Positions 34,015 through 42,266 of a DNA stretch of 64,000 bases are shown in pieces (positions within the stretch are counted from its first letter, which is position 1; each line of letters opens with the position of its first letter). A program made the position numbers and the translations under genes. The notes below the pieces were generated by a model. That model saw only the letters and a list, made by a program, of their open reading frames with translations, did no database searches and was not told the DNA's origin. Source of the DNA: Curvularia clavata. Lineage: Eukaryota. Where the stretch lies: assembly GCA_023920165.1 (NCBI GenBank), contig CP089280.1:1488001-1552000 (forward strand), given 5' to 3'.

Positions 34015-36489
34015 ATGCCTTATCCTATCACCATTCCAGGCTCTCCATCAAGTATGGCTCGGCCAGAGAGAAGTCCCATGCACTGGCCTAGCTTTCCAGA
34101 CGTTCCTATTTACCTCGACACAAGCAACAGCCACGCCGCCAACAAGACCTATGGAACAACACCCACAACCCCAACTACACCAGAAAGGGTACCAAGCGGA
34201 CGCCCAACACATCTCAGCCCAGCCCACATCAATGCCCCACCAATCAGTCCAGTAGAGCCCAGCCCTACCACAACCATAGAGACAAGCTCGGATCACAACT
34301 CCCAAATCTGGCCAATTCCCGAACCTCCTCCAGAAGTGAGGCATCAGAAGCCTCGACGACCCTATCTTCAATTTATCCCAAACGACCGGCCCCGTCTTCG
34401 CCTTGGTGAATCTCATCTGACGGTTCCTCAGCAGGCTCCCGTCCCTGAGAGCCAATATCCCCAAGATCACAAGTCGCACCACGGTCTTGGTATTAGCGGT
34501 GGTCCGCCCAAGCCACCATCCATCACAGTACAGCCACCACCATTTGACAGTGAGAAAGTTGAACCAGCCACAAATATTGCACAACGAATCGAGGAGAAAC
34601 TCTGGAACTACAATTCTTCAGGCAACGTTATTGAGCGATGGATTCTTGAGATAGTTAGTTGGCTGATCAGCGCTATCTGCATGGCTGCTATAATCGCTGT
34701 CCTGGCCGTTCTCAAGGACAAGCCAGCTGCAAAATGGCCTTTCGATAAGATGGGGCTCACTCTGAATGCCTTTGTATCTGTACTCTCCCGAATTGCCGGG
34801 GCTGCTCTCCTCCTGCCAGTAGCAGAAGCACTTGGCCAACTGAAATGGAGCTGGTTTGTTAGGGGCGACTCGAAGAAGATGTGGGACTTTGAAATGTTCG
34901 ACAACGCATCACGAGGACCTTGGGGCGCTTTCCTTCTTCTCATACATACAAGGGGCAAGACAATTGCTGCTCTGGGTGCGCTCGTCACAATCTTTGCGCT
35001 TGCATTGGACCCTTTCTTCCAACAGGTCGTCAGTTTTCCAGAACGGTGGACATTGCAGGAAGCGAACAGCTCTATACCTCGAACGGTACGATATCAGCCC
35101 GTTTACGATATTGAGTATGTGAACGGTATCGACATGGCTGAAACCGACGCGGACATCTGGGCCATCGCTGACCAATTCTTTCTCCATAACGGGACGCAGC
35201 CTGTTCCCTATGGGAATGGCACTCGTGCAGATATTCCCATCTCTTGTCCCAGTACCAACTGCACTTGGCCAAGCTATGAGACATTGGGAATGTGTAGCCA
35301 GTGTGTCGAAACACCAAATCTCCTAAACTTCACGTGTATGGAGACTCAGGTGGATTGGACCTCAACGCTTACTGCGAATGTGTCGACTTTCCCTAATACC
35401 ACAGTATGTGGATATTTCCTAAATTCCACCAGTGATGCACCAGTTCTCATGTCTGGATACATCGTGGAAGAAAATGGGAACAAGACCGGAGAAGCTTTGA
35501 TGATGCGAACTTTGCCGCTGGTAACCAACCCAGAACGATATGCTTTATGGGGAGACGGATCCATCAACTTCAAACACATACGAAATCCTATTATTGATTT
35601 CGTGATCGCGGCCAGTGCGAACAGCGCTGATGTCTACGCGGAGAAGATGCCCGTAGTCCACGAATGTGTTGTCTCCTGGTGCGTTAAAACCCTGGAGTCA
35701 TCTTACCACTTAGGCACCTACGAGGAGAAAATAACGAACGTCTTCTTAAACGAGACCCCAGGATCGTTTCCATGGTCAAGCACCCAAAGTGAAGACGAAA
35801 ACATCCTTATCGTGGACTATTTCGACAACGTAACGATCTCCGCACCCCCAGTGAACCCAGATTCAGCTAAATACGGATGGGGAGTCAACAATGATACCAT
35901 GTTCAACACGGTCTATGTGTTTGATCGCATATTTCCGGCATTCACAACTCTTACGAACTATTCTGAAACTCCGGTACTTCGCTGGAGGACTGGAAGCTTT
36001 ACACAGGCCAGAACTAAATATTTGGATTACAACCCCTGGTTACCGCCAAATAATATCTCGCGTCATATGGAACGGATGACCGAAGCCCTTACAAATGTTG
36101 TTCGATCATCAACTAGTAAAGAAATGGTATTCGGTCAAGCTTTCGATAATGAAGTTTATGTGGAAGTCAAATGGGGATGGCTGAGTTTGCCGCTGTGTCT
36201 GCTTCTTGTCAGCTGTTTGTTTCTCGTTTCGACAGTGATCAAGAGCGCTGCTGAAAAAGGCCAAGTTAGTATAAGGAAGAACTCTGCGATTGCGACCTTG
36301 CTTTACGGGCTTCCAGACCATTACCAGAAACGACTCGCAAAATCCAACTCGGAGGGTACACCAAGGGCGAGAGCTAAGGAGTTGAAAGTGAGACTGTCCG
36401 CTACACGCGGCTGGAGAAGTTCCGGAATGTTATTCACTCCTTCGACACCGAAAGGCCCTTCCAATCTACCACCACCGGGGTGGATTTAA
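34015..36489 (+). CDS. DUF3176-type multi-pass membrane protein, paralog 1 (intronless, 824 aa)
   Basis: Pro-rich N-terminus. TM block WILEIVSW...LTLNAFVSVLS...PVAEALGQLKWSWF...DFEMFDNASRGPWGA...LALDPFFQQVV (DUF3176 signature as recalled). Large Cys- and NxS/T-rich ectodomain (CPSTNCTWPSYETLGMCSQC) and a final TM VEVKWGWLSLP. Confidence 0.85.
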   Translation: MPYPITIPGSPSSMARPERSPMHWPSFPDVPIYLDTSNSHAANKTYGTTPTTPTTPERVPSGRPTHLSPAHINAPPISPVEPSPTTTIETSSDHNSQIWPIPEPPPEVRHQKPRRPYLQFIPNDRPRLRLGESHLTVPQQAPVPESQYPQDHKSHHGLGISGGPPKPPSITVQPPPFDSEKVEPATNIAQRIEEKLWNYNSSGNVIERWILEIVSWLISAICMAAIIAVLAVLKDKPAAKWPFDKMGLTLNAFVSVLSRIAGAALLLPVAEALGQLKWSWFVRGDSKKMWDFEMFDNASRGPWGAFLLLIHTRGKTIAALGALVTIFALALDPFFQQVVSFPERWTLQEANSSIPRTVRYQPVYDIEYVNGIDMAETDADIWAIADQFFLHNGTQPVPYGNGTRADIPISCPSTNCTWPSYETLGMCSQCVETPNLLNFTCMETQVDWTSTLTANVSTFPNTTVCGYFLNSTSDAPVLMSGYIVEENGNKTGEALMMRTLPLVTNPERYALWGDGSINFKHIRNPIIDFVIAASANSADVYAEKMPVVHECVVSWCVKTLESSYHLGTYEEKITNVFLNETPGSFPWSSTQSEDENILIVDYFDNVTISAPPVNPDSAKYGWGVNNDTMFNTVYVFDRIFPAFTTLTNYSETPVLRWRTGSFTQARTKYLDYNPWLPPNNISRHMERMTEALTNVVRSSTSKEMVFGQAFDNEVYVEVKWGWLSLPLCLLLVSCLFLVSTVIKSAAEKGQVSIRKNSAIATLLYGLPDHYQKRLAKSNSEGTPRARAKELKVRLSATRGWRSSGMLFTPSTPKGPSNLPPPGWI

Positions 36490-36642
36490 TTGTATTTGAA
36501 TATCAAGGATTTACTATCCTTTTTACTACAATGGAGTACAAGAAATACAAAAGAAATTGTCAAAGAAATATTAGAAATGATACCTTCCGAAACGGTCTGC
36601 AGCAACATTGATAGCAGACTCTTTGTAAAATCTCCCTCCTCT

Positions 36643-37415
36643 TCAACTGCTTCCTCCGCGTTCGGCACCACGACCGCGCTCGACTAGACCCTCGGAAGAT
36701 TTAGCATTACGTTTGCCGCTTCCACCACGTTCGGCACCACGGCCTCGCTGTACGAGCTCTGTTTCTCCTTGGGACCTCCGTCGACCGCTTCCTCCGCGTT
36801 CTGCGCCGCGACCTCGCTCGACTAGACCCTCGGTAGGTTCAGCTTCGCGTTTACCACTTCCACCACGTTCTGCACCACGGCCTCGCTCTACGAGCTGTTC
36901 CATTTCTTCTTGAGATCTACGTCGACCACTTCCACCACGTTCGGCACCACGGCCTCGCTGTACGAGCTCTGTTTCTCCTTGGGACCTCCGTCGACCGCTT
37001 CCTCCGCGTTCTGCGCCGCGACCTCGCTCGACTAGACCCTCGGTAGGTTCAGCTTCGCGTTTACCACTTCCACCACGTTCTGCACCACGCCCTCGCTCTA
37101 CAAGCTCCTCTGTTTCTTCTTGGGACCTCCGTCGACCGCTATCTCTCCAGTGAACCCGACCACCCCAGTTCGAGGCTGGACGTTCGACAACAGGTAACCG
37201 TTCTGTACCAGTTGTTCGCTTTGCTTGATTGGCATTGAAGGTTTCAGTATGTCTCTTGACATCCAGTTCCACATTGAGAGAAGGTGTCTAATACAACCGT
37301 CAGCACAGTGATCATTGATGAAAGACTCAAGTCCACCTACGTCGATCAGTGGGACGGCGGCAGAAAGAGTTGGAACGACAAGGGTCGCAACGGCAAAGAT
37401 GATGGTTCCTCGCAT
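36643..37415 (-). CDS. Secreted Kex2-processed repeat protein (KEP), 239-aa multi-copy peptide precursor
   Basis: Exon 1 37415-37341 encodes the signal peptide MRGTIIFAVATLVVPTLSAAVP. A 53-nt phase-0 intron (GTAGGT...GCTGAC...TTAG, 37340-37288) joins it to exon 2 37287-36643, which carries 7x LV[EQ]R-GRGAERGGS[G/S], the first six followed by KR/RRR. Confidence 0.88.
36646..37140 (-). repeat. Coding tandem repeat of 69-72 nt units, with a 210-nt higher-order duplication
   Basis: The sequence at 36721 (tccaccacgttcggcaccacggcctcgctgtacgagctct...) recurs at 36931. The duplicated block is three units (24+23+23 codons). Confidence 0.92.
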
Positions 37416-40028
37416 GGTCGCAGATCCTAGAAGACAGTTGATTGGCCAGCAGATGGATGATCGATAAAATTAAAAGAGTGAAAGATCGCACAGCGAAACG
37501 TTGTCGAAGAAGCTTTGGGTTGTCTGGGAGTGGAGACGAGAACCTCGAGGACGTGTTGATTCATTTATCCCTCATGAACACACCACGGGGATTGCAGATT
37601 CGGTGATACCGCACGACCGACTCACACCTACAACCTTGCTGTCGGCGCTTCAACCCGTGGTCACTCATTACCTTGATAACCGCCTTTGAAGCCACCTATG
37701 CGGTGCAAGGCACACGGAACAGCATGCACAATGCGCGCATCATGCGGAGCTGTACAACCATTGGGAGAAGCAGGCGAAGGCATGATGGTTGAAGTACAAA
37801 CTGGGAAAGGTGAAACACAAAAGCCGACGCGACTGGAACGCGCGGCGTTAGATTGACATTGGTGGAGGCCTTGGAACGTCGCGCAATGGATCAGAAGGCT
37901 CCAGGGGCTTTCATCACATGGAGATATCACATTGGAAGCGCTGGAAGGGCTTTCTACAAGGCAGGTCAAAAGATTTGAGAATATGTAAGTCAAACTCTAG
38001 GCCTGTGATTGCCTTAGTTTTCAACAATTGTTAGAACGATTTCTAACCAATCGAAGATGTATAGTAATGTGACGAGACTTGGCGGCGTTTTGATCCCTTG
38101 ACAACAAATGAAGCGATTGGCTCTGCTTGATCGGTACCTTACGCCAATCAACCGCTCCCGCGACCTAGTCACAGGTGTTCGACATGCGAAATACGTGCCA
38201 GCGCTTCGCCTCCTTCAACAACTTTGTTCAGATTTTACAAAGATTGAATATATGCTGTTTGTACGGGTTTACGAAATCATTGTTAAGTTCCGCTGTTGCG
38301 ATGGTGCGTGGCGTTTTTACCCCTGCATAGCAGCCGCAGTTAGCAGCACCACGCTCGACAATGCAATTGTCACACATTGTCTGCAATCGCAATCGACACG
38401 AGGACTGGTGCAGCTTATACCAGGACTATAGCGGAGTTCTATGATTCGTGCCCTTTGTGGCATGCATGAAGGACCACTTCGATCATGTACACTTTGATTG
38501 CGACATTGCAAGAAACGATACCCATACAAACAAAGTTCTGGGGTATGCTGACCGAGAAGCGTTCACCAATCATGCATTTCTATTAAGCGCCCAGTCTCAA
38601 CACTGACGTCGTTAGGTCTCCTCCATTACCACCCGGGCAAAACAATGAAAATCATGTATACCTTATCAGAAGTGTCCTTCATGCAGGTTCGTCTCTTTTT
38701 TGCTCTTAGTACTACACCTACAGCCCTACCCGTAACTATGTCATGCTTGCACGCACCTCGGTTGTAAGCACCAGGTATAAGTAATCACAACGTTTATGCA
38801 GTGTGATATCAACAGAACCCCTCCGCTTATCCCATTGTCAACGCTTTAGCATTGGCGTCCTTATGGTTCGACGACTTTAGGACCGCACAGGCTTCCTCCA
38901 GCCAGGGTCATTTAGTCATTCAACTGTCACGTGATCATAGCGATTTCTGTAATGAACCTGCTTACATGTGTAAAGCAAAGACTCAGTTTACTCACAAAGA
39001 TAGAATGTTCTATAGTTACTAGAAATAAGAAGTGTGCCAAGTGATGTTTAGATTTCTATTGCCCCAGACATACCCCTTCCCTTCTGCAACCAGCACCTGT
39101 ATACTATGTGCATCACGATATCTGTAAAGATGCATAGCGATTCGGGCCATATGTGAAAATGTTACAAAAAATTCAGTCTTCTTTGACAAGATTCTTAGAA
39201 GAGGAGGCTCTAGTCTCAATCCCGCTCGTCTTTGGTTATGTCCTTCATGCGCGAAGGTGGCGTCTAGAAGTCCCACCGTTGATACGAGTTCGATGTATGT
39301 TTTTCTTTGCGCTGTCTTGCGCTATCTGTATGCTTGTGTCAACGTTGAGCAATCCACGATATCAGGTGTTCGAGAGAGCCTCCAGTTCAACCCCATCGGC
39401 CACGTCAACTTGAGTATAGGCCTATCAGGACTCTGCTGATCCTGCTGCACGTCGATGAAGGAGTAAAATCGCCTTGCGTTATGCCTAGGACATCATGCCT
39501 CATAATCGCACCACTTCCAGCGCTTGCATGCAAGTATGTATTGTGCTTCCAGTGGGTACTGTAATTTTGATCTGCCTAACCCTCTCGAGAATGGTTCATC
39601 AAGCACAGCATTGCGCCACGGCGCTACCACGAATGTCTAAGTACCGCATGATTGGCGCAACTAACTTTGTCGCTCTATAAGCCGCCCAACGACTCATGTG
39701 CTGTCAAGTTACGGCGCTAAGCATCTTACTTCCAATGGTTCAATAATAAAGCCCAGTACACGTCTACAGTTAAACGATATAATTTTCCGATCTAGAACTA
39801 CACGTTTGGTGTCGGCTAATTGCCGAAGCGCGAACTGATAACTAGATCACCTTGACTAGACAAGTTGCCGCCCGCCTACCGGTAGCCGATAAGCGCCTGG
39901 CTTCATCACTGCAACAAGGCTTGAATGCTGCGGATGTGGCTACCAATCATGGGGTCTACAACCTCATTCAAAATACAGCCTCTCGTATCACATCATGTAA
40001 TTTCAAATTTTCGTGCAAACGCAGTCGT

Positions 40029-42266
40029 ATGATGCCGCGAACACGAGAGAAAGTCTTACCTTTTGTTTTCAACGGACCTCAACCTTCCTATTTCCCAACG
40101 AGCAGGGATGCACCAGAACCACCACCTAATGAATATCGGGCTTCAGCACACGAAAAGCCCTCTCTTGACCTACCGGGCCGCCTCGAGCAAAAGCTTGCAC
40201 AATACAATGCATCCCAAAGTGTCCTCAAGCGTTGGTTGTTCGAAATCACAAGCGTCACAATAAGTGCAGTTTGTATGGGTACGAGGATCCTCATTCATTC
40301 AACTTCGCATGTGTCGCTGACTAGTTATTTTTTCAGGCGCAATTATCGGCATCCTGCATTACCTCAAAGACAAGCCCCTCAACGCATGGGCTCCCGGCCT
40401 CACTATTATCACAATTCTCTCAAAAGTTGCGTCAGCGGCGCTCATCTTACCAATATCCGAGGCCATCGGACAGCTTAAGTGGACTTGGTTCCATGGTGAA
40501 AAGTCTAGAGATGTATTCGACTTTGAGATCTTTGATAAAGCGTCGCGTGGTGCTTGGGGCTCGTTCATGCTCTTGTGTCGCACAAAGGGCAAGTCGCTCG
40601 CCGCACTAGGTGCTCTTCTAACAATCCTTCTGCTGGCAATCGATACGTTCTTCCAACAGGTAACCGACTTGCCAGAACGCTGGAAAGAGCAGGGTGAAAG
40701 CTTTATACCACGCATTGTCCGTTACGAACCGGCTCCCGAAAATCAATACCAGGACGACGATACTATACCATTGGCCCTAACGAACAACGAGCTTCGGAGA
40801 GGGATATACCCGTTCTTCTATAACCAGAATGGAACTCGTCCGCTTACGACAGGGAATGCCACGCAAGCCGAGATACCGCTTGTGTGTCCTACCGGTACAT
40901 GCGAATGGCCATCATACGAGACTTTGGGGGTTTGTAGTGCCTGTGAGGATGTCTCGCACCTGCTTGAATACGCTTGCCTTACGACAAAAATGGATTGGAT
41001 TAGGACAGCGAAGGGTCCTGAATTGAATGCTTCTAGCTTTCCACGAGGTATGTTCCACTTATGTACTGAACTTCCTGCTCATTCTCTACAATTCCACAAA
41101 TTATATTCAATGGGTTTGGTATGACCACCAATCCGTCTCAAAGCCGACACCGTCTTTTGCTACTAGCTAATTATTTGTTAACAGATACTGCATGTGGCTA
41201 TTTTCTGAATGCAACCAGCGACAATCCTGTCCTGATGTCAGGTTTTCGAGTTGATAACCTCACCAATCCTGTCCCGGGCGAGACTCTTCTCATGCGGACT
41301 CTGCCGCTCGTCACCAATCTGTTCAGAGAACCACTTTATGGCAACGCGACCATCAGTTTCGATCATATCCAATATCGAATATTAGACGCGTTGATCGTGA
41401 GCTCTGCTGATGGCACTGCTGACAGTGTTTACAAAAAACAGCGCCCTATCGCTCAGGAATGCATGTTGACGTGGTGTGTCAAGACGCTCCGTTCTTCATA
41501 TCAATCTGGTGACTATCGAGAAGAAGTACAAGAGGTGTTTATAAACAACACCAAGGCAGCTTACCCATGGACTGCCATAGTTCATGCCGAAGAACAATAC
41601 GTCGAACAAGGTTTTGCGCCAAATATCAGCATACGTCCCCCCTCGCTAGCAACAGACAAGCCTGCATTCGGGGTTTCCAATGAGACATTCTTCGACTTTG
41701 TGATCATTTTTGACGAGATTTTTCCGTCCATGATTACAGTTACCAGCCCAACGGCGGCGCCCGGCATTAAGATATTTACTAGTAACTCAAAAACATCCCA
41801 ATGGCGTTCCTTCCGATTCAGCCCTTGGCTCGCACCAAATAACGTCACGTACCACTTAGAACGAATGGCTCAAGCTATGACGAATGTGATCAGATCTGAC
41901 ACAGAAAGTAGCGAGCTTATTGCCGGCACTGCTTATGCACGAGAAACATACGTTGCAGTTCATTGGGGCTGGCTTGCGTTTCCGTTAGCAATGCTCTTTC
42001 TAAGTGGTATTTTTCTGGTTTCGACAATTTTAAAAACCTCAAGCGGGAATTACGAAGATATTGGCGTGTGGAAGACATCGGCAATGCCAACTTTGATGTA
42101 TAGTCTACCGAAAGACATACAACATGGGGTTCTATCGACAACTCGCCCAAGGACTATGACAAGCAAGCGCTCAAGTAGGGTTCGAATTAGACTGTTACCC
42201 AAACAAGGCTGGAGGGTTTCTGGCCAAATACCTGCTAGACCACCTCCTCCACCTGGCTTCTTCTAG
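40029..42266 (+). CDS. DUF3176-type multi-pass membrane protein, paralog 2 (2 introns)
   Basis: Exons ~40029-40278, 40337-41047 and 41185-42266; start codon uncertain. Motifs PISEAIGQLKWTWF, DFEIFDKASRGAWGS, LAIDTFFQQV, CPTGTCEWPSYETLGVCSAC and VAVHWGWLAFP; collinear with paralog 1. Confidence 0.85.

Follow-up and report, generated by a model that had tools for sequence, protein, structure and literature searches.

The window analysed here is a stretch of 64,000 nucleotides from the fungus Curvularia clavata (assembly GCA_023920165.1, contig CP089280.1, positions 1,488,001 to 1,552,000 of the forward strand), numbered from its first letter. Between positions 34015 and 42266 it contains the gene of a Kex2-processed repeat protein (KEP), placed between two genes of DUF3176 membrane proteins, P1 and P2. 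The KEP is a real gene for a secreted precursor with seven identical cores under purifying selection, and the family it is part of combines fast-changing cores with conservation of the signal-peptide exon, the intron position and the pro-region. This family is kept tail-to-tail with one clade of DUF3176 genes (P1-type), followed by a conserved element, a P2-type paralog and often a P3-type paralog. That KEP and DUF3176 form a conserved module of Pleosporales-type fungi, made of a peptide plus its sensor or partner, is proposed tentatively, as a reading that falls somewhat short of an even chance.

The window is fungal, the closest matches of its genes being Pleosporales proteins (Bipolaris, Pyrenophora, Alternaria and Parastagonospora, 66-76% identity) and a metagenome protein (83%). 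The parts of the locus are the following, with the evidence in brackets.

34015-36489, plus strand: P1, DUF3176 membrane glycoprotein, a single-exon open reading frame (ORF) of 824 aa (Pfam PF11374)
36490-36642, no strand: tail-to-tail spacer of 153 bp, from the P1 stop to the KEP stop (coordinates)
36643-37287, minus strand: KEP exon 2, with the pro-region (PSLNVELDVKRHTETFNANQAKR), a degenerate unit, seven cores and the stop codon (reading frame and tblastn)
36649-37095, minus strand: KEP repeat array, with acidic spacers and KR/RRR sites between the cores (translation)
37288-37340, minus strand: KEP intron of 53 nt, GTAGGT...TATTAG (frame logic, contigs, position kept across loci)
37341-37415, minus strand: KEP exon 1, signal peptide MRGTIIFAVATLVVPTLSAAVPLID (hydropathy, exon type kept across loci)
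37620-38220, plus strand: conserved transcribed non-coding element of about 600 nt (blastn, spliced contigs)
37985-38056, plus strand: intron of the element, GTAAGT...TTCTAACCAATCGAAG (absent from the contigs of four of four runs)
40029-42266, plus strand: P2, DUF3176 paralog of 680 aa (exons 40029-40278, 40337-41047 and 41185-42266)
40279-40336 and 41048-41184, plus strand: P2 introns (intron 1 absent from a contig of run X1)

The P1 stop codon has its last base at 36489 and that of the KEP occupies 36643-36645, whereas the KEP start codon (37415, minus strand) and the P2 start codon (40029, plus strand) are divergent with 2613 bp between them. Both points agree with an earlier description made from the letters of the window (the sequence-only reading), which had placed the KEP 153 bp from P1, stop to stop, and divergent from P2. 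It had also described the three genes as an island in gene-poor DNA. Sparse flanks do exist, but they are short (about 2 kb upstream, 2-4 kb downstream), and the spacer between KEP and P2 is not empty, as it contains the conserved transcribed element.

The KEP precursor has 239 amino acids, a hydrophobic N-terminus and 13 dibasic positions. The hydrophobic stretch covers residues 5-23 (Kyte-Doolittle 2.2) as judged by hydropathy. RGRGAERGGS is present in seven copies; in the longer frame there are six copies of GRGAERGGSG plus a C-terminal GRGAERGGSS, and an eighth, degenerate unit (RPASNWGGRVHWRDSGRRR) lies ahead of the seven cores. The repeats have a period of 69 nt and 6.1 copies (Tandem Repeats Finder, TRF). 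Among the seven core copies, of 30 nt each, eight nucleotide positions vary, all eight being third-codon positions and all eight synonymous, whereas the 12-aa spacers before the cores differ at 6.2 residues on average. This contrast identifies the core as the unit under selection, and rules out chance or mere homogenisation as the explanation of the repeats. The seven identical cores and the secretion claimed by the sequence-only reading are thus borne out by the copies counted, the hydrophobic N-terminus and a gene model with one intron. A three-unit block of 210 nt within the array (36716-37140) is duplicated at 95% identity (TRF), which points to a recent block duplication over older, synonymously diverged units.

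The precursor carries the features that define the KEP class, an N-terminal signal peptide and at least three near-identical repeats flanked by KR/RR sites. In the accessible sections of two surveys (Le Marquer 2019, PMC6339444; Umemura 2020, PMC7329392) KEPs are likewise small proteins with a signal peptide, tandem identical cores, KR/RR sites and acidic spacers. The window KEP also has EA/EP dipeptides after KR, like alpha-factor-type precursors. No Pfam family matched either piece of the KEP, MF_alpha included, and the core motif of Pleosporales alpha-pheromones, PYG[LM]P[IV]G (as given in the available text of Le Marquer 2019, PMC6339444), is absent; an alpha-type mating pheromone precursor was rejected on these two absences. 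The GRGAERGGSG core carries a net charge of about +1 and has no hydrophobic face and no aromatic residue. A C-terminal Gly-Lys-Arg as amidation signal was set aside, since in orthologues KR is often preceded by S, D, N, T or H. A protein search with the single KEP sequence returned no match, not even the KEP itself, and two KEP profile searches did not return the window's own KEP protein whereas P1 was returned (P0001); the KEP gene therefore seems to lack annotation in the source genome.

The arrangement was followed in metagenome contigs fetched with a profile of P1 orthologues, 68 loci being kept. Nearly all loci with sufficient flank have a repeat ORF on the opposite strand right behind the P1-like gene. 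The tree comprises 84 DUF3176 copies, which are P1 and P2 of the window and, of 110 copies detected in the loci, the 82 with enough coverage, and separates three clades: P1-type (43 rows), P2-type (18 rows, of which 17 are locus copies and one is the window) and P3-type (23 rows). A KEP lies tail-to-tail with the DUF3176 gene in 31 of the 43 P1-type rows (27 distinct after removing four duplicate contigs, window included), in most cases an orthologue of the window's KEP, and in another arrangement in four (L031, L032/L033 and L041). The other rows are four with no KEP within a flank of 3-10 kb (L013/L016 and L022/L023), three with the flank absent and one that is a second tandem copy. The KEPs of the rows with another arrangement are all encoded on the plus strand, about 1 kb downstream of the P1-type gene in L031 and upstream of it in L032/L033 and L041. 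The P2-type and P3-type genes are located downstream of P1 in the same orientation. The distance between P1 and the tail-to-tail KEP is 52-458 bp, with a median of 184 (25 loci), and the linkage reaches P2 over 3-5 kb with the conserved element between.

The KEPs of these loci share a signal-peptide exon of the form M[HRY]G.T.FL.ASL.LPI.A.PVP and an intron at the equal place, identified in 24 of the 25 loci examined, followed by a conserved pro-region, ERRxxFSLTxLxRDxLKRxxxIEAxP. A hidden Markov model (HMM) of the pro-region matched 16 locus ORFs at E<=3e-5, where 15 come directly after a P1 gene and the sixteenth (L067) is at the start of its contig with the P1 gene out of view. Homologues of the window KEP were identified by tblastn in L001, L002 and L003, and the KEP alignment comprises the window and 18 orthologues. 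As an internal control the outer neighbours of the window were considered, and none of their 12 ORFs was found in any locus flank; the flank genes that could be named by Pfam differ from locus to locus. The sequence-only reading had put forward that such precursors should recur beside this DUF3176 subclade in related genomes, and the test passes with the 31 rows mentioned plus two named Pleosporales genomes.

At the far end of some arrays, after the last DUF3176 gene, there is a second multi-core precursor on the plus strand (L045:7813-8973, L055:10533-11222 and L058:8414-9292), and proteins P0126, P0127, P0138 and P0152 have the same build. This precursor mixes core types that are amplified singly in the tail-to-tail KEPs (IKFNSPGGHRR, HNVPWGGKR, ARGRYRGSS and others). 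The window contains neither a far-end multi-core precursor nor a third DUF3176 copy.

The cores change from lineage to lineage: GRHVNWGG (L001), GRGYGYGGN (L003), GLGVSRGG, KVFIPGGGPS, DALRGGGGD, GLQRGGGGGS, IKFNSPGGH and ARYRGNSG. Nearly all of them have a basic residue, in many cases followed by a Pro, and then G-G or G-N shortly ahead of KR/RR; the pattern common to the lineages is basic-x-(P/G)-G-G...KR, and (V/I/L)-E-x-R is found ahead of most cores. W or Y is present in some orthologous cores, such as those of L001 and L003.

A profile of the syntenic KEPs returned eight proteins by word-indexed search and 43 representatives by exhaustive HMMER search (E<=0.001), 41 of the 43 being fungal precursors of alike build as judged by eye. 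The named members looked up are all from Pleosporales: Clathrospora, Neocucurbitaria, Pyrenochaeta, Alternaria, Curvularia, Cucurbitaria and Parastagonospora. KEP and DUF3176 proteins have consecutive accessions in Clathrospora elynae (KAF1944985.1/KAF1944986.1) and in Pyrenochaeta sp. (KAH7398491.1/KAH7398492.1), and from this numbering on one contig the two genes are inferred to be adjacent. The other two of the 43, P0158 (525 aa) and P0166 (357 aa), are long precursors with many ...F.SWGGKR units, have no fungal pro-region and were matched via the WGGKR repeat only. They resemble animal amidated-neuropeptide precursors, presumably a convergent build.

P1 has 824 aa; in the database model translation begins at Met14, giving 811 aa. 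The Pfam match to DUF3176 (PF11374) has an E of 3.6e-36 and 124 bits against a gathering cutoff of 27 in P1, and an E of 1.6e-32 and 112.3 bits in exon 2 of P2; the domain was matched in all 57 aligned homologues. Orthologues of P1 in Pleosporales have 66-83% identity. The hydrophobic segments of P1 are 213-231, 252-270, 317-335 and 724-742, and its ectodomain comprises 388 aa with 8 Cys and 14 NxS/T sites. The layout is alike in P1 and P2, with three hydrophobic helices, a stretch of about 390 aa (8 Cys, 10-14 NxS/T), a fourth helix and a tail, and it is the one claimed by the sequence-only reading for both paralogs (three transmembrane helices, an ectodomain rich in Cys and glycosylation sites, one more helix and a tail), now confirmed by hydropathy and by the Cys and NxS/T positions. 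The paralogs have 44% identity over 649 aa.

The conserved Pro-rich cytosolic N-terminal region of about 200 aa is carried by P1, whereas P2 is without a long N-terminal region. In P1 it is encoded by 34015-34611 and contains the invariant Pro-rich motifs YGTTPTTPTTPE, WPIPEPPPE and RRP.L.F.P. The C-terminal ends are PPPGWI in P1 and PPPPPGFF in P2, so PPPG[WF][IF] closes both paralogs (P1 36430-36486; P2 42230-42263). No Pfam family matched the Pro-rich region or the tail motifs, which may serve docking or sorting as far as can be told from their sequence.

An AlphaFold model of P1 residues 190-765, built with the 57 homologues, has a confidence (pLDDT) of 81.8 and consists of a four-helix bundle that carries a beta-rich domain; the ectodomain alone gave a pLDDT of 88.8 and a predicted template-modelling score (pTM) of 0.87. 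With this ectodomain nothing was found in the PDB by Foldseek at E<=0.001, no match with Z>=5 was found by full alignment (VIA) among 48161 representative chains (best Z 3.5), and the P1 sequence profile gave no matches to PDB sequences at E<=1. The modelled fold thus appears to match none of the solved structures searched, which is not in itself proof of a novel fold. The weak Foldseek rows (bile-salt hydrolase, herpesvirus gB and EFF-1) were discarded as noise, with E of 4e-3 or worse and a TM-score of 0.07-0.13, and the matches of the full P1 model (vinculin, talin and similar, Z 10-12) are generic four-helix bundles that reflect the transmembrane bundle and are uninformative. The DUF3176 alignment has invariant polar residues (R, E, Y and H) in the ectodomain.

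The topology of DUF3176 is tetraspanin-like: the N-terminus lies inside, the first loop is small, and the loop that joins transmembrane helices 3 and 4 is large and Cys-rich. Four helices with a large loop in this place are common to DUF3176 and to tetraspanin, MARVEL and SUR7-type proteins; in contrast to these, the loop of DUF3176 has about 390 aa, is mostly beta and has no solved fold match. Below threshold, MARVEL was matched in 6 of the 57 DUF3176 members (best E 0.041) and SUR7 in 1 of 57. Tetraspanin itself was rejected, there being no CC or CCG in P1 or P2 and no Tetraspanin among the Pfam matches at E<=1. In a feature search of the ESM Atlas with P1, 11 of 30 look-alike clusters carry DUF3433 (score 0.94), whereas none of the 57 DUF3176 proteins matched PF11915 (DUF3433) at E<=1; the resemblance is a lead based on features, and homology is not shown. 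A system with DUF3433 is CWR-1/CWR-2 of Neurospora crassa, which according to the available text of a preprint (bioRxiv 10.1101/2025.01.17.633681) is formed by linked genes of an extracellular protein and a multi-pass DUF3433 membrane protein acting in trans, CWR-2 having 8 transmembrane helices and two large extracellular domains. The layout of CWR-2 looks like two DUF3176-like units in tandem. Differences are the partner, which is a chitin monooxygenase domain in CWR and a candidate diffusible repeat peptide here, and the variation, which is high among the extracellular domains of the CWR alleles, in contrast to the conserved P1. Four Fusarium proteins join a DNA-binding domain of NDT80/PhoG type to DUF3176 according to the accessible part of another preprint, and such fusions would fit a signalling role.

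The transcript-like data are contigs from four runs of two related organisms, the type of run being presumed. Contigs of X1 and X6 are shorter by a net 53 nt at the exact predicted site of the KEP intron, a contig of X1 is without the 58 nt (GT..AG) of P2 intron 1, and in all four runs about 72 nt are missing at 37985-38056. Since the missing stretches have the exact length of canonical introns, the contigs are best explained as spliced RNA, which supports the gene models in the relatives. Record 21 of X6 (3008 nt) extends from 33879 through P1 to 36852, ending within the KEP repeats, so the 3' ends of the P1 and KEP transcripts probably overlap or abut. Other contigs connect KEP exon 1 to the plus-strand spliced element.

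This element (37620-38220) has 65-73% nucleotide identity in 26 loci at an equal relative position (blastn), a conservation that is above the expectation for a neutral spacer at such divergence. Its intron is conserved on the plus strand (GTAAGT...TTCTAAC...AG), and among its invariant blocks there are several CCAAT/ATTGG boxes, GATAA and CACGTG, all identified by eye. A 3-periodicity is absent from the alignment, where 258 of the 356 gap runs have a length of 1 mod 3, so the element is taken as non-coding. Four candidate identities were discarded: a coding gene, on the lack of 3-periodicity and the predominance of 1-nt indels; a long 5' untranslated region of the KEP, as the intron is canonical on the plus strand only; a known RNA, there being no Rfam match at E<=1; and a structured RNA, which is unsupported (RNAalifold covariation term -3.21, 11 of 87 pairs with compensatory changes). 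From its sequence and position the element could be a promoter or enhancer also transcribed divergently from the KEP, or a conserved long non-coding RNA, and either way it is part of the module.

Repeat precursors in clusters with DUF3328 (UstYa) genes are known from the RiPPs (peptides made by the ribosome and modified after translation) ustiloxin, asperipin-2a and phomopsin. The locus described here resembles them in the clustering of a repeat precursor gene with genes whose membrane-associated products belong to a fungal DUF family. It differs in several aspects: the window core is without Tyr or other aromatics used for cyclisation, DUF3176 has four transmembrane helices and an ectodomain of 390 aa, and the HxxHC motif was not seen in it, no formal search having been made. 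As the sequence-only reading had claimed, neither DUF3328 (PF11807) nor tyrosinase was identified by Pfam among the module genes, 20 large ORFs and 52 further ORFs of at least 90 aa between 24 and 52 kb of the window; neither was identified among 84 flank ORFs scanned out of 258 candidates in 31 loci. A dikaritin-type RiPP cluster was therefore rejected, with no DUF3328 gene nearby and no aromatic core residue. The second comparison is with pheromone loci. In the P/R mating loci of Basidiomycota and in alpha-factor/Ste2 of Ascomycota the gene of the sensing receptor is in tight linkage with the precursor genes and the cores diversify fast. The KEP/DUF3176 locus likewise has a peptide precursor linked to a membrane protein gene and a rapid change of cores, although the pheromone receptors (Ste2/Ste3) are G protein-coupled receptors (GPCRs) with seven helices whereas DUF3176 has four, as judged by hydropathy and by the AlphaFold bundle.

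In the peptide-partner module that is tentatively preferred, the precursor would enter the secretory pathway and be cleaved at KR/RRR, with a probable further cut behind the conserved (V/I/L)-E-x-R ahead of each core. About seven copies of a small, Gly-rich and basic peptide (GRGAERGGSG in the window) would be released and would act extracellularly on the large glycosylated ectodomain of DUF3176, by recognition of the common basic-x-(P/G)-G-G pattern and not of the variable residues. The Pro-rich cytosolic ends of P1 could relay the signal inward. Through their linkage ligand and sensor would be inherited together, and the conserved intergenic element might serve to co-regulate them. The sequence-only reading had proposed that DUF3176 proteins could be receptors, channels, or processing or immunity partners of the peptide; this proposal is supported in part, by the synteny, and the functional roles are hypothetical. 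The architecture of P1 is compatible with a sensor, with four transmembrane helices, a confident ectodomain model and invariant cytosolic N- and C-terminal motifs. A wider version of the proposal is rather doubtful: DUF3176 proteins would be a new class of fungal surface peptide sensors with their ligands encoded alongside, where each P1-type gene has its own single-core KEP, the P2/P3 arrays with the far-end multi-core KEP form a combinatorial code of peptides and sensors for self-signalling or kin recognition, and the spliced non-coding transcript or enhancer wires the genes.

Several points weigh against the peptide-partner module. The cores are wholly different between close relatives (GRGAERGGSG in the window, GRHVNWGG in L001, GRGYGYGGN in L003) at about 75% P1 identity. 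P1 has changed far less than the cores, and this speaks against a lock-and-key fit to the variable residues; from a highly specific receptor one would expect co-variation with the ligand. Two P1-type lineages (L013/L016 and L022/L023) lack a KEP in spite of their 3-10 kb flanks, and with a gap of 52-458 bp rearrangements would rarely split the pair even without selection. The counts themselves are to be read with caution, as the syntenic loci are metagenome contigs, the rows of the tree are related so that the KEPs counted are not independent events, and the KEPs of L015, L021 and L024/L025 are truncated by the contig end or have an ambiguous reading frame. The first rival is neutral microsynteny, in which KEP and P1 are functionally unrelated genes whose 3' ends are too close for breakpoints (median gap 184 bp) and the DUF3176 paralogs are tandem duplicates. 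That P2 and P3 are indeed tandem paralogs, that two lineages lost or moved the KEP with the P1-type gene intact, and that the P1 sequence does not follow the core changes are all in its favour. Unlike what closeness alone predicts, the adjacency survives rearrangement in L031, L032/L033 and L041; the linkage also spans the 3-5 kb to P2 with the conserved element between, while the outer neighbours are not conserved, and a second multi-core KEP is found at the far end of the array in L045, L055 and L058. Neutral microsynteny is a serious rival to the peptide-partner module, although it is considered unlikely.

Two other explanations retain a link between the genes without a sensor. DUF3176 could be a partner on the side of the producer, giving immunity or aiding the maturation or export of the peptide as the membrane partners of bacteriocin loci do. 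Short, basic, Gly-rich peptides and a membrane protein encoded beside the precursor would suit such a role, and the invariant polar residues of the ectodomain (R, E, Y, H) could make a binding or catalytic site; the ectodomain, however, is like no known enzyme fold or motif (Foldseek, VIA and PDB profile), the core with its charge of about +1 and no hydrophobic face is unlike membrane-active peptides, and the Kex2/secretory route requires no dedicated exporter according to what is known of KEPs (Le Marquer 2019, PMC6339444, available text). This explanation is improbable. Still less probable is a coupling in cis only, where convergent overlapping transcription of KEP and P1 regulates by antisense or interference, the divergent non-coding transcript contributes, and the products do not interact. 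It draws on the 3008-nt contig that covers P1 and enters the KEP repeats, the contigs that link KEP exon 1 to the plus-strand spliced element, the short tail-to-tail gap in all 25 loci measured and the many invariant motif-like blocks of the element. Unstranded assemblies can nevertheless fuse overlapping transcripts, the type of run being presumed, and the KEPs of L031, L033 and L041 are still adjacent to a DUF3176 gene with which they are not convergent.

Thousands of fungal KEPs have been catalogued, and apart from alpha-pheromone and its GPCR we know of almost no KEP with a known target. The precursor described here constitutes a new family among them, and the module is a variation on an established theme, in which the genes of a peptide and its partner are linked. 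One member of the family, OAG15636.1 of Alternaria alternata, is already in Table S2 of Umemura 2020 (PMC7329392) as type 0, that is, a stand-alone KEP, and the available text of that survey does not recognise the family seen here through signal-peptide exon, pro-region and synteny. The same survey, in its accessible sections, examined the 15 nearest genes of 7878 KEPs and reported an enrichment of DUF3328, and the term DUF3176 is absent from its main text and three supplements (PMC7329392) as far as these were available. The strings 'DUF', 'neighbo' and 'synten' are absent from the main text of Le Marquer 2019 (PMC6339444). No mention of PF11374/IPR021514 or of six orthologue locus tags was found in the literature searched, and no published description of a KEP-DUF3176 module was found by full-text search, the papers combining KEP, receptor and transmembrane being judged by title and start of the abstract. 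The statement of the sequence-only reading that such a locus was not described to its knowledge agrees with this search as to the module, whereas of the precursor family one member, OAG15636.1, was already listed. Knock-outs of six Fusarium KEPs had no defect in sexual development, which is the sole trait examined in the available text (PMC10589705).

A KEP family that is found across an order beside one clade of uncharacterised membrane glycoproteins provides a concrete candidate partner for orphan KEPs, and the linkage offers an initial clue to the function of DUF3176, a large family of fungi that a single work mentions in the literature searched. Many Pleosporales are associated with plants; a self-signalling peptide system could, speculatively, bear on their development or on host interaction.

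Multiple copies were identified in several named genomes. Pyrenophora teres, Alternaria, Clathrospora, Zopfia and Paraphoma include several cases with two or three P1-type proteins, in tiers of about 75%, 68% and 54% identity, and no fewer than three different KEPs of the family (P0122, P0128 and P0150) occur in A. alternata. This multiplicity of P1-type proteins and KEPs per species suggests that the whole module may be present in several paralogous copies per genome. Among the DUF3176 proteins of Stemphylium lycopersici are P0018, P0025, P0078 and P0083, and the models of 1318-1319 aa (P0018 and P0025) are probably merged neighbouring DUF3176 genes. In the locus tags of this species (DDE83_000073/000075 and TW65_08331/08333) exactly one gene lies between the two DUF3176 models of each pair, and this gene could be a KEP.

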